NCBI RefSeq assembly: GCF_030384885.1
Contig: NZ_CP128613.1
Source: Escherichia coli
Lineage (GTDB): Bacteria > Pseudomonadota > Gammaproteobacteria > Enterobacterales > Enterobacteriaceae
DNA: 64,000 bases
Strand: one strand, 5' to 3'
Part shown: positions 13,302 to 61,978 of the stretch, one piece after another
Numbering within the stretch: position 1 is the first letter of the stretch
Layout: each line of letters opens with the position of its first letter
Program-made: the position numbers and the translations under genes
Notes under the pieces: generated by a model
What the model was told of the DNA's origin: nothing
The model's input: the letters and a program-made list of their open reading frames with translations, nothing else
Database searches by the model: none

Positions 13302-13574
13302 ATGTCTCATACAATCCGTGATAAACAGAAACTGAAAGCGCGTGCCAGTAAGATTCAGGGTCAGGTCGTGGCGCTCAAGAAAATGCTCGACGAGCCGCAC
13401 GAATGCGCAGCTGTTCTACAACAGATTGCTGCTATCCGTGGCGCGGTAAACGGCCTGATGCGCGAAGTGATTAAGGGGCATCTGACGGAACACATCGTTC
13501 ACCAGGGGGATGAGCTAAAACGTGAAGAAGATCTGGATGTCGTTCTGAAGGTGTTGGATTCATATATCAAATAA
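13302..13574 (+). CDS. rcnR: Ni/Co-responsive repressor RcnR (CsoR/RcnR family)
   Basis: 90 aa; divergent from rcnA; operator sites in the shared intergenic region. Confidence 0.9.
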
Positions 13575-13664
13575 TTTCACAACGTTATTGTAATCCCGCC
13601 GTTTTTCCTCGTTTACAACGTGTGCGCGGGACATTACCATCCATCTCTGCGATTCATCATCGCA

Positions 13665-13790
13665 ACCAAACGACTCGGGGTGCCCTTCTGCGTGAAGGCT
13701 GAGAAATACCCGTATCACCTGATCTGGATAATGCCAGCGTAGGGAAGTCACAGACCACCAGGTCATTGCTTCTTCACGTTATGGCAGGAG
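13665..13790 (+). ncRNA. TPP (thi-box) riboswitch in the thiM 5' leader
   Basis: Leader contains GGGGUGCCCUUCUGCGUGAAGGCUGAGAAAUACCCGUAUCACCUGAUCUGGAUAAUGCCAGCGUAGGGAAGUC immediately upstream of the thiM RBS/ATG; matches the classic thiM aptamer I recall. Confidence 0.88.
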
Positions 13791-13796
13791 CAAACT

Positions 13797-14585
13797 ATGC
13801 AAGTCGACCTGCTGAGTTCCGCGCAATCAGCGCACGCGTTAAACCTCTTTTACCAACACTCTCCTCTTGTGCATTGCATGACCAATGATGTGGTGCAAAC
13901 CTTTACTGCCAATACTTTACTGGTGCTCGGTGCATCGCCAGCGATGGTTATCGAAGCAGAAGAGGCCAGTCAGTTTGCGGCTATCGCCAGTGCCTTGCTA
14001 ATTAACGTCGGCACGCTGACGCAGCCACGCGCACAGGCAATGCGTGCTGCCGTTGAACAGGCAACACACTCCCAAACGCCCTGGACGCTTGATCCGGTCG
14101 CGGTTGGCGCACTCGATTATCGTCGCCATTTTTGTCATGAACTTTTATCTTTTAAACCGGCAGCGATACGTGGTAATGCTTCGGAAATCATGGCATTAGC
14201 TGGCGTTGCTAATGGTGGACGGGGAGTGGACACCACTGACGCCGCGGCTAACGCGATACCTGCTGCACAAACACTGGCACGGGAAACTGGCGCAATCGTC
14301 GTGGTCACTGGCGAGGTGGATTATATTACCGATGGTCGTCGCACCGTTGGCATTCACGGCGGCGATCCGTTAATGACCAAAGTGGTAGGAACTGGCTGTG
14401 CATTATCGGCGGTTGTCGCTGCCTGTTGTGCGTTACCAGGTGATACGCTGGAAAATGTCGCATCTGCCTGTCACTGGATGAAACAAGCCGGAGAACGCGC
14501 CGTCGCCAGAAGTGAAGGGCCTGGCAGTTTTGTTCCCCATTTTCTTGATGCGCTCTGGCAATTGACGCAGGAGGTGCAGGCATGA
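13797..14585 (+). CDS. thiM: hydroxyethylthiazole kinase
   Basis: 262 aa; preceded by the TPP riboswitch; overlaps thiD start by 4 nt. Confidence 0.92.
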
Positions 14586-15382
14586 AACGAATTAACGCTC
14601 TGACGATTGCCGGTACTGATCCGAGCGGTGGCGCAGGGATTCAGGCCGATCTTAAAACCTTCTCGGCACTTGGCGCTTATGGTTGCTCAGTTATTACTGC
14701 ACTGGTGGCGCAAAATACCCGTGGCGTACAGTCGGTGTATCGCATTGAGCCTGATTTTGTCGCCGCCCAGCTCGATTCGGTGTTCACTGATGTGCGAATC
14801 GACACCACTAAAATCGGTATGTTGGCGGAAACCGATATTGTTGAAGCGGTGGCAGAACGGTTGCAACGTTATCAGATCCAAAACGTGGTACTCGACACCG
14901 TTATGCTGGCAAAAAGCGGCGACCCTCTGCTTTCACCTTCGGCGGTTGCCACGCTGCGCAGTCGATTATTGCCACAGGTTTCATTAATAACGCCAAACTT
15001 GCCCGAAGCTGCCGCCTTGCTCGACGCGCCACACGCGCGCAACGAACAGGAAATGCTGGAACAAGGGCGATCGCTGTTGGCGATGGGTTGTGGCGCAGTG
15101 CTAATGAAAGGTGGTCATCTGGATGATGAGCAAAGCCCGGACTGGCTGTTTACCCGAGAGGGGGAACAACGGTTTACTGCACCGCGCATTATGACCAAAA
15201 ACACCCACGGCACTGGTTGTACGCTCTCTGCGGCGTTGGCTGCACTACGCCCGCGCCATACAAACTGGGCTGACACCGTACAGGAGGCAAAAAGCTGGCT
15301 TTCATCGGCGTTAGCCCAGGCCGACACGCTGGAAGTTGGCGACGGTATTGGTCCGGTTCACCACTTCCACGCCTGGTGGTGA
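14582..15382 (+). CDS. thiD: hydroxymethylpyrimidine / phosphomethylpyrimidine kinase
   Basis: 266 aa, ribokinase-like fold; translationally coupled to thiM. Confidence 0.92.
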
Positions 15383-15437
15383 GCACCGTACTATAGCTGC
15401 TTTGGTTATTGTCAGTCTTTGGCGCTGACATTCAGGG

Positions 15438-16265
15438 ATGAAACCAATGCAACTGAGAATCACCAGTCGAAAAAAATTCACCGCTTTATTATGCGCTCTG
15501 GGGCTCATTTCTATCGTTGCGATTTATCCGCGTCAGACGGTGAATTTTTTCTATTCGACAGCAATTCAGATTAAAGACTACATCCACTTCTACGGTTATC
15601 GCCCGGTCAAATCTTTTTCTATTCGCATTCCTGCCGCTTATACCATTCACGGAATAGATGTTTCGCGCTGGCAGGAGCGGATCGACTGGCAGCGGGTGGC
15701 TAAAATGCGCGATAACGGTATTCGCTTGCAATTTGCCTTTATCAAGGCGACGGAAGGCGAAAAGCTGGTGGATCCGTATTTTTCGCGTAACTGGCAACTA
15801 AGCCGCGAAAATGGCTTGCTGCGCGGGGCGTATCATTATTTCTCCCCGTCGGTATCCGCTTCAGTTCAGGCGCGATTATTTCTGCAAACGGTGGATTTCT
15901 CACAAGGCGATCTCCCTGCCGTGCTGGACGTAGAAGAACGGGGAAAATTATCGGCAAAAGAATTACGCAAGCGGGTAAGTCAGTGGCTAAAAATGGTCGA
16001 AAAACGCACGGGAAAAAAGCCGATTATTTACTCAGGAGCCGTTTTTTATCACACCAATCTGGCGGGCTATTTCAATGAATATCCGTGGTGGGTGGCTCAC
16101 TATTATCAACGTCGTCCGGACAATGACGGCATGGCCTGGCGCTTCTGGCAGCATTCCGACCGTGGACAGGTAGATGGCATTAATGGTCCGGTGGATTTTA
16201 ATGTGTTTAATGGCACGGTGGAGGAGTTGCAGGCATTCGTTGATGGGATTAAAGAAACGCCTTAA
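15438..16265 (+). CDS. yegX: predicted GH25-family lysozyme/muramidase-like exported protein
   Basis: 275-aa ORF with N-terminal hydrophobic segment; the true start may be the Met at 15447. Confidence 0.75.
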   Translation: MKPMQLRITSRKKFTALLCALGLISIVAIYPRQTVNFFYSTAIQIKDYIHFYGYRPVKSFSIRIPAAYTIHGIDVSRWQERIDWQRVAKMRDNGIRLQFAFIKATEGEKLVDPYFSRNWQLSRENGLLRGAYHYFSPSVSASVQARLFLQTVDFSQGDLPAVLDVEERGKLSAKELRKRVSQWLKMVEKRTGKKPIIYSGAVFYHTNLAGYFNEYPWWVAHYYQRRPDNDGMAWRFWQHSDRGQVDGINGPVDFNVFNGTVEELQAFVDGIKETP

Positions 16266-29945: not shown

Positions 29946-30032
29946 AAAAAATAAGCCCGTGTAAGGGAGATTACACAGGCTAAGGAGGTGGTTCCTGGTA
30001 CAGCTAGCATTTTATGGGTTATGTTTTTCAGC
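29946..30032 (-). ncRNA. cyaR: CyaR (RyeE) Hfq-dependent sRNA
   Basis: Reverse complement reads GCTGAAAAACATAACCCATAAAATGCTAGCTGTACCAGGAACCACCTCCTTAGCCTGTGTAATCTCCCTTACACGGGCTTATTTTTT, which matches the 87-nt CyaR sequence as I recall it, including the terminator hairpin and U-tail. Confidence 0.9.
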
Positions 30033-30116
30033 GAAACGGATGATAACCTTAATAAATGCAGCTGTATGTGATCGGTTTCTAAGAATTTTCCATCCGGGAA
30101 AAATAATCGAAATTAA

Positions 30117-44932: not shown

Positions 44933-45073
44933 GGGAAAGCCCCTCCCGAGGAAGGGGCCTTAAATAAGGAAAGGGTCATGATGAAGATACTCATCATCGT
45001 GGTGCTCTTAGTCGTTAGCTACCCAGCTTACTAAGACTACCAGGGCGGGGAAAACCCCGCTCTACCCTCACTC
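44933..45073 (-). ncRNA. sibA: Sib antisense antitoxin RNA, unit 1 (approximate ends)
   Basis: Ends placed by analogy to the K-12 sibA/ibsA geometry (sib fully overlaps ibs on the opposite strand); not mapped from sequence. Confidence 0.45.
44978..45034 (+). CDS. ibsA: type I toxin Ibs, 18-aa hydrophobic peptide (MMKILIIVVLLVVSYPAY)
   Basis: ATGATGAAG... ORF preceded by an AGGAAAGGG RBS; matches the Ibs family. Confidence 0.75.
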   Translation: MMKILIIVVLLVVSYPAY

Positions 45074-45260
45074 CTGAAAATATGCCTTCACGGTCAGAAT
45101 GTCAATCCGCAGGCTTTGCAGTCTGCGATCCTGCCAGCAAATATTCTTTGCGAGTCGTTACGCAATAATCACAGATGAAACTATTTTATCTACGCGTTAG
45201 CGATAGACTGCATTCAGGGCGAAAGGAGGTAAGCCGATGATTTCAGCGGGACGCTGAAAC

Positions 45261-45401
45261 GGGAAAGCCCCTCCCGAGGAAGGGGCCTTAAATAAGGAAA
45301 GGGTCATGATGAAGTGGATCATCATCGTGGTGCTCTTAGTCATTAGCTTACCGGCTTACTAAGACTACCAGGGCGGGGGAAACCCCGCTCAACCCTCACT
45401 C
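45261..45401 (-). ncRNA. sibB: Sib antisense antitoxin RNA, unit 2 (approximate ends)
   Basis: As unit 1. Confidence 0.45.
45306..45362 (+). CDS. ibsB: type I toxin Ibs copy 2 (MMKWIIIVVLLVISLPAY)
   Basis: Second repeat unit; same architecture. Confidence 0.75.
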   Translation: MMKWIIIVVLLVISLPAY

Positions 45402-45588
45402 CTGAAAGTATGCCTTCACAATCAGATTGTCAATCCGCAGGCTTTGTAGTCTGCGATCCTGCCAGCAAATATTCTTTGCGAGACGTTACGCAATAATCAC
45501 ATGTGAAACTATTTTATCTGCAAGTTAGCGATAGACTGCTTGCATGGCGAAAGGAGGTAGGCCGCCGATTTCAGCGGGACGCTGAAAC

Positions 45589-45729
45589 GGGAAAGCCCCT
45601 TCCGAGGAAGGGGCCTTAAATAAGGAAAGGGTCATGATGAAGCTACTCATCATCGTGGTGCTCTTAGTTATTAGCTGGCCAGCTTACTAAGACTACCAGG
45701 GCGGGGGAAACCCCGCTCTACCCTCACTC
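45589..45729 (-). ncRNA. Sib antisense antitoxin RNA, unit 3 (approximate ends)
   Basis: As unit 1. Confidence 0.4.
45634..45690 (+). CDS. type I toxin Ibs copy 3 (MMKLLIIVVLLVISWPAY)
   Basis: Third repeat unit; same architecture. Confidence 0.7.
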   Translation: MMKLLIIVVLLVISWPAY

Positions 45730-45907
45730 CTGAAGTTATGTTACTCCACCCTTATTGTCAATCTGTAAGTCCACGTTCTTGCGGGGCGAATAGCAAAACC
45801 CTCTGCGCTTATGGGCCGAATTCTGAAAGTTGCTTTGCCTGCTCTTATTTCATTATTGCAGTCGGTATGATACCGGACCTCAATAATTCTCTAAGAAAGG
45901 ATTTCTT

Positions 45908-61320: not shown

Positions 61321-61788
61321 AGTAAGTACAAAACCTATTCGTTGTATGACAAATGTCACAATTCGATCATGGATAAATCGGGGCAAAAATGCAATGTTGC
61401 AGCACTATTTATCTCATATAATTTGAGGGTTATAACCTCACATTATCCCTGAATTAAAAGTGGCAATAATAAAACATTATTTAAGAAATATCGCATATGG
61501 AGACACTATATTAATTATTGTCAACCTAAAGAAAGTCCTAAAAAACATATTGATTGACACTTAATATAATTCTTAAAAATAGCCAATTGCCGAATTGTTA
61601 CCTTGCCTGCTATTCCGTTAGCTGTAACACTTCCTCCTGCATTATTGGAAGCCAATATTCAATTACCATAATGCCACCTTATATCTGGAAAATTAATTCA
61701 CGGAATAACGCTTTTTCATAATCGACTGCATGATGAAAGAGTTAGAAAATCTAAACTAAATCAGTGTATTGGTAGCTAAAAAGCCAGG

Positions 61789-61796
61789 GGCGGTAG
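61789..61796 (+). promoter_or_regulatory. ops element (GGCGGTAG) of the JUMPstart sequence in the wza leader; RfaH-dependent antitermination site
   Basis: GGCGGTAGCGTG present ~190 nt upstream of the wza ATG in a long untranslated leader. Confidence 0.75.
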
Positions 61797-61978
61797 CGTG
61801 TCTGGATGCCTGAAAGACCAGTCTGAATTATTCTGTCAATAGCCTGCGGATGAAATCAATTTTTTTAGGACTGATGCCAGTTAAATTTTTGTTCAATTAA
61901 CTGCAAGGTAAATGTGCATGGCGACATTGCTATTAATAGTGCACAGGATAATTACTCTGCCAAAGTGATAAATAAACA

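Follow-up and report, generated by a model that had tools for sequence, protein, structure and literature searches.

The thiM TPP riboswitch in the thiMD leader of an Escherichia coli genome, with a proposed OFF-switch mechanism

Results

The leader of the thiMD mRNA is a known TPP riboswitch

The window, the whole 64,000-nt stretch of E. coli DNA that was analyzed, contains the thiM TPP riboswitch of E. coli within the 150-nt thiMD mRNA leader, and we are highly confident that it is an OFF switch working by the mechanism proposed below. Four elements of this assignment come from the present analysis: the match to the aptamer model, the neighboring genes, the conservation of the leader and the existence of two mutually exclusive helices. 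That the RNA binds TPP, represses translation and leads to Rho termination would carry over from publications on K-12, which has the identical aptamer core. The decisive evidence for the mechanism is the set of published experiments on K-12 RNA; the comparative data are compatible with the mechanism but not decisive, and nothing was found that contradicts the explanation. The element has been known for a long time and is already marked in public genomes, and biologically it is nothing new. The thiM riboswitch is among the founding and best-studied members of its kind, with crystal structures, probing, kinetics and Rho coupling all published, and annotation pipelines report it routinely. The coordinates of its parts and of the adjoining genes are collected in Table 1.

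Table 1. Features of the thiM riboswitch and its operon in the window
Feature	Position	Strand	Basis or detail
rcnR	13302-13574		NF011613, 197 bits; upstream of aptamer
Promoter-like site, candidate thiM promoter	13612-13640	+	TTTACA, 17-nt spacer, TACCAT; 9/12 consensus matches
Probable transcription start (+1) of the thiMD mRNA	13647	+	Numbering of Bastet 2017
TPP riboswitch aptamer	13666-13762	+	RF00059; P1-closed structured core, 13672-13749
J3-2 UGAGAA, TPP pyrimidine pocket	13700-13705	+	Sequence read; U39-A44 in thiM numbering
P4/P5 helix, pyrophosphate-sensing arm	13718-13743	+	8 standard pairs (Rfam alignment)
Switching strand (anti-anti-SD)	13732-13750	+	3′ strands of P5, P4 and P1
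Anti-SD UUGCUUCU	13766-13773	+	Pairs with 13786-13793 when the aptamer is enforced
Shine-Dalgarno (SD) region AGGAGCAA	13786-13793	+	SD core GGAG, 13787-13790
thiM, hydroxyethylthiazole kinase	13797-14585	+	TIGR00694, 331.5 bits (cut-off 256.4); start codon 13797-13799
Candidate rut / Rho loading region	13847-13856	+	nt 201-210 of PMC5499598, converted with +1 = 13647
Candidate Rho termination sites in early thiM	13877, 13883, 13908	+	nt 231, 237 and 262, converted
thiD, HMP/HMP-P kinase	14582-15382	+	TIGR00097, 360.1 bits (cut-off 204.95); second gene of the operon

The aptamer matches the TPP family over its full length

The Rfam covariance model for the TPP riboswitch (RF00059) is matched over all of its positions (1-105 of 105) with a score of 71.5 bits, which clears the gathering score of 54.3. 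All 4227 Rfam families were scanned, and the run over the 64-kb window used the curated thresholds. The match has E = 2.6e-13 in the 4 kb between 12000 and 16000, where it is the sole Rfam match, and E = 4.2e-12 in the whole window, where it is the single TPP match. The sequence-only reading had placed a thi-box, or TPP, aptamer in the thiM leader and had proposed a TPP covariance-model search of the surroundings (~13600-13800) as its check; that search is clearly positive. A structured regulatory RNA was therefore recognizable from the raw sequence, and its 5′ end had been set within one base of the curated annotation.

The three-way junction is present, with P1 closing the arms P2/P3 and P4/P5, and 20 of the 22 model pairs present in the sequence are standard. 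P1 ends in one of the non-standard pairs, C13671/A13750, and P3 contains the other, C13685/A13696; the P3 mismatch is attributed to a one-base register problem near the bulged C of that helix. The optional P3a insert is absent here, as it is from the published thiM RNA. The nucleotides that contact the ligand are conserved, both the UGAGAA of J3-2 and ACCUGAUCUGGAUAAUGCCAGCGUAGGGAA at 13717-13746 in the P4/P5 region. Within the 5′-U(39)GAGAA sequence described by Lang 2007, G40 hydrogen-bonds to the pyrimidine of TPP and G42 and A43 stack on it (PMC2018614); the same source summarizes crystal structures that assign the P4/P5 arm to the pyrophosphate of TPP. Every feature of the RF00059 family that can be assessed computationally is found in this aptamer. 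TPP binding and the response of expression come from experiments on K-12 RNA with the identical aptamer core (PMC1920254, PMC2018614, PMC5499598), and the window allele, which carries A13752, would by extension bind TPP and be regulated in the same way.

The minus strand opposite the riboswitch contains an ATG-initiated ORF of 68 aa (13560-13766) that overlaps the aptamer, and one could read this strand as the real coding sequence and the RNA match as incidental. It matches no NCBIfam family and is absent from the RefSeq annotation, so it is almost certainly spurious. Set against a covariance-model E-value of 1e-12 to 1e-13 and an RNA function that is experimentally established, a protein-coding explanation is vanishingly improbable.

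The aptamer precedes thiM and thiD in a conserved gene order

The 3′ end of the aptamer lies 34 nt from the thiM start codon on the same strand, with thiD next, and rcnA is located beyond rcnR on the opposite strand. The ends of thiM and thiD overlap by 4 nt (ATGA at the thiM stop; junction GCATGAAAC). The thiMD genes that the sequence-only reading expected downstream are thus identified by family matches to TIGR00694 and TIGR00097 on one strand, and RefSeq agrees. The closest solved structure to ThiM is PDB 6jyy (E = 5e-110). In the RefSeq record NZ_CP027579.1 a "TPP riboswitch" is annotated at bases that correspond exactly to 13666-13762 of the window, followed by thiM and thiD, and its leader is 100% identical to the window over the 226 nt compared. 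The same 226-nt intergenic stretch is 100% identical in several E. coli chromosomes.

The thiM product differs from that of K-12 at 13 amino acids and the adjoining ThiD at only 3. Nucleotide identity to K-12 over 13640-15400 is 95.6%, and for a core gene of the species thiM has diverged unusually far, perhaps through recombination or because constraint on it is relaxed. On the 3′ side of thiD, a 275-aa ORF (15438-16265, + strand) has no NCBIfam match at E <= 0.001. Its RefSeq counterpart is slightly shorter (corresponding to 15447-16265) and is annotated as yegX, a glycoside hydrolase family 25 protein.

Numbering, promoter and relation to the K-12 allele

The window aligns with K-12 MG1655 without gaps over 13569-13839. 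The K-12 thiM TPP riboswitch lies at the same locus (rcnR-thiM-thiD) and agrees with the window in aptamer sequence, anti-SD, SD and spacing, and we take it to be the RNA of Winkler 2002, with the crystal structures of Serganov 2006 and of Edwards & Ferre-D'Amare 2006. Nucleotide n in the numbering used by Winkler, Rentmeister and Lang is position 13661+n of the window. This mapping fits all of the residues checked in the aptamer and beyond it: G18, G19, U39-A44, U46, A53, U62, A69, G72, U79, A85, G100, G101 and the SD residues G126-G129.

Bastet 2017 numbers from the transcription start, with G142C as the ribosome-binding-site mutant and U152A as the start-codon mutant (PMC5499598). Because the AUG of the window is at 13797-13799, these two mutants place +1 at 13647, and G142 then becomes G13788, one G of the SD. 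The promoter-like site ends 7 nt upstream of this probable +1, and both of its hexamers are the same in K-12; the consensus scan alone is weak, with 2 sites found and 1.4 expected.

Between the transcription start and the AUG the window differs from K-12 at two positions, C13655 and A13752, where K-12 has T and G, respectively; both are outside the P1-closed aptamer core. A13752 is nt 91 (G91 in K-12), just 3′ of P1 and within the platform. K-12 and E. albertii share G, so A13752 looks derived, and it also occurs in other E. coli. In a plain thermodynamic model the SD is unpaired in 56% of the ensemble for the A13752 allele and in 16% for the K-12 allele. One reading of this model result, which we consider unlikely, is that the G-to-A change at 13752 moves the switch in this lineage toward a different ON/OFF balance; if it were true, the strain would have higher basal thiMD expression or a different TPP set-point.

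Two mutually exclusive helices connect the aptamer to the SD

The whole leader (13660-13830) is no more stable than its shuffled versions (z = -0.22), which is unsurprising in an RNA that has two alternative folds in competition and makes tertiary contacts. Overall stability is uninformative here, and constrained two-state folding was therefore used. Two folds of the segment 13666-13815 were computed, one free of constraints and one in which the base pairs of the Rfam aptamer were imposed to imitate the TPP-bound state. In the free minimum-free-energy structure, 13732-13750 is paired with 13767-13786 and the SD is open. Enforcing the aptamer pairs UUGCUUCU with AGGAGCAA. In the free ensemble the probability of being unpaired is 0.83 for G13787, 0.83 for G13788 and 0.78 for A13789, and it is 0.00 for all three with the aptamer enforced; G13790 is mostly paired either way (0.07 free, 0.00 enforced). 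The anti-SD is in one of two mutually exclusive helices, with the SD or with the 3′ strand of the aptamer.

These computed helices are the two helices derived from published probing. The TPP-free model of Rentmeister 2007, based on enzymatic and chemical probing, pairs nt 71-86 with nt 108-125 and has a reactive SD, and the modification of nt 126-129 that is seen in the absence of TPP decreases when TPP is present (PMC1920254).

The proposed mechanism has two states. At low TPP, positions 13732-13750, the aptamer's 3′ half, would pair with the pyrimidine-rich anti-SD region (13767-13786), and the SD core and the AUG at 13797 would be free, allowing synthesis of ThiM and ThiD, the salvage kinases for thiazole and HMP. 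When TPP is abundant, it would clamp both arms, with the UGAGAA of J3-2 on the pyrimidine ring and P4/P5 on the pyrophosphate via Mg2+. P1 would then close and release the anti-SD, which would pair with the SD region and block ribosome binding. The untranslated early thiM RNA would expose a C-rich rut site (~13847-13856), Rho would terminate at ~13877-13908, and thiM and thiD mRNA would both drop.

The interval that the sequence-only reading assigned to the riboswitch, 13665-13790, encloses the aptamer and the larger part of the platform but is too short at its 3′ end, which coincides with that of the SD core. The functional unit reaches the start codon (13797-13799) or further; published work counts the first ~35 thiM codons, with the Rho loading site, as part of it.

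Translational control coupled to Rho is favored over other outputs

Many Firmicutes TPP riboswitches act by intrinsic termination. Premature termination at an intrinsic terminator would likewise explain why thiM mRNA falls with TPP (PMC5499598), and it could in principle be the main output of this leader in place of hiding the ribosome-binding site. A scan of the + strand from 13400 to 15600 found no terminator-like hairpin with a U-run behind it, and no U tract comes after the platform helix, whose end is in the SD/AUG region. The published drop in mRNA is Rho-dependent and secondary to blocked translation (PMC5499598). Intrinsic termination as the main output is thus very improbable, and the lack of such a terminator fits translational control plus Rho. 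Bacillus-type TPP riboswitches, such as the tenA and thiC leaders, share the aptamer fold and the ligand with the thiM RNA but use intrinsic terminator/antiterminator platforms of a kind that is absent from the thiM leader.

Bastet 2017 found that TPP addition lowers thiM and thiD mRNA together (PMC5499598), which upholds the claim of the sequence-only reading that the riboswitch controls the whole thiMD operon. Rho loads at ~nt 201-210 of the thiM transcript and terminates transcription at nt 231, 237 and 262 (PMC5499598). The C-rich, G-poor character of this tract is kept in the window (over 25 nt from 13837 and from 13847, C makes up 36% and G 4-8%), and the rut decamer is CTTTTACCAA here and TTTTCACCAA in K-12, a difference of 2 bases. 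Rho loading and termination at the converted positions are candidates in the window, carried over from the K-12 work.

The conserved tract, together with a loading site at nt 201-210 and termination within thiM codons 20-34 (PMC5499598), is also what one would look for if the fold of the RNA set Rho termination directly, independently of translation and as the primary output. The rut site is, however, inside the coding region and would be covered by translating ribosomes, and the authors of PMC5499598 attribute the early termination in thiM to repression of translation, as its consequence. Direct control of Rho by the fold is accordingly quite improbable, and translational repression followed by Rho termination is preferred.

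The other E. coli TPP riboswitches, in thiC and thiB (tbpA), have the same aptamer class and lie outside the window in other operons with different expression platforms. PMC5234074 and PMC11487190 describe both as OFF switches on translation initiation with effects at the mRNA level, and PMC5234074 places a regulatory pause of the thiC riboswitch at the start site.

The aptamer is more conserved than the expression platform

The leader is present in 5424 of the 5426 complete E. coli genomes. A scan with a degenerate thi-box pattern, using one genome per species, returned at least 120 loci from many phyla; the 8 thiM-linked Enterobacterales leaders among the matches listed are too few and too alike for a real covariation test. 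The aptamer, including its P4/P5 pairs, is invariant in 7 aligned Enterobacteriaceae thiM leaders and thus gives no covariation signal.

Both platform helices keep ~90% of their pairing in the 7 leaders, compared with 30-59% when the partner strand is slid. The pairing potential of the anti-anti-SD helix is retained in 89.7% of the cells of this alignment (7 genera/strains), compared with 40-57% for slid partners. A compensatory change from U-A to C-G at 13767:13792, in the helix that sequesters the SD, is found in two Enterobacter sequences; it is a single case, and the count of compensatory pairs is not significant (54/500 in the shuffle control). Eight of nine Enterobacterales thiM leaders have CUUCU and the ninth has UUUCUUC, and in all nine this pyrimidine run is complementary both to the aptamer GGGAAG and to the SD.

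The two-state thermodynamic test gave clear or full sequestration of the SD in 6 of 9 orthologous leaders; its outcome was ambiguous for Citrobacter werkmanii, Enterobacter sp. Bisph1 and Yersinia aldovae. The Superficieibacter leader pairs its SD with another anti-SD, CUCCUG, located directly 3′ of P1. Conservation is thus lower in the expression platform than in the aptamer, and outside Escherichia the simple two-state model does not decide the matter.

The search with 13575-13800 as query returned 5730 matching places in the 5424 genomes, with up to 3 per genome and one on a plasmid. The extra places could be duplicated aptamer halves at the junctions of the island described below, or the thi-box of other TPP riboswitches.

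An integrase-borne island is inserted at the thiM aptamer in other genomes

In some E. coli genomes a mobile element is located inside the thiM TPP aptamer, at the equivalent of 13664-13742, with 13730-13742 as the core of the insertion site; the window is without this insert. An intact island of ~10.4 kb lies between rcnR and thiM in NZ_CP062811.1 (locus L125, 19839-30561), and its cargo comprises a tyrosine integrase, TIR-domain, NACHT-domain and recombinase-family proteins and a DEAD/DEAH helicase. On the rcnR side the native promoter and the aptamer are kept up to the equivalent of 13742, and on the thiM side an aptamer copy borne by the island begins at the equivalent of 13664, giving a direct repeat of 79 nt. 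Because the island carries this 79-nt copy of the 5′ part of the aptamer, a complete, annotated riboswitch stands before thiM, and the native promoter is displaced. The apparent attachment site of the integrase-borne island is the thiM TPP aptamer, which is inserted into and then rebuilt. In this the element resembles islands that target and restore tRNA genes.

A decayed form of the island, cut by IS3, is found in NZ_CM172609.1 (locus L124, 44143-49494). Here the aptamer is broken, scores 50 bits, which is below the gathering score, and is flanked by a 13-bp repeat, AATGCCAGCGTAG. The island integrase occurs in 29 of the 5426 complete E. coli genomes. A shallow literature search found no published account of integration at thiM, and an integrase island that targets an aptamer may deserve attention beyond the riboswitch itself.

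Other RNA elements in the window

Three tandem genes for Sib antitoxin sRNAs (RF00113, 137-139 bits each) are located on the minus strand at 44963-45105, 45291-45433 and 45619-45761, with a spacing of ~328 nt. K-12 presumably has two Sib genes at the corresponding locus (sibA and sibB), and in another strain two Ibs toxin genes are annotated between yegL and mdtA. The Sib copy number may vary between strains. A CyaR (RyeE) sRNA gene (RF00112, 100.7 bits) is on the minus strand at 29949-30034. The + strand carries at 61762-61800 a JUMPstart element (RF01707, 57.3 bits), a type of leader that contains ops and is typical of polysaccharide operons; its location compared with K-12 makes it the probable leader of the colanic-acid operon (wza).
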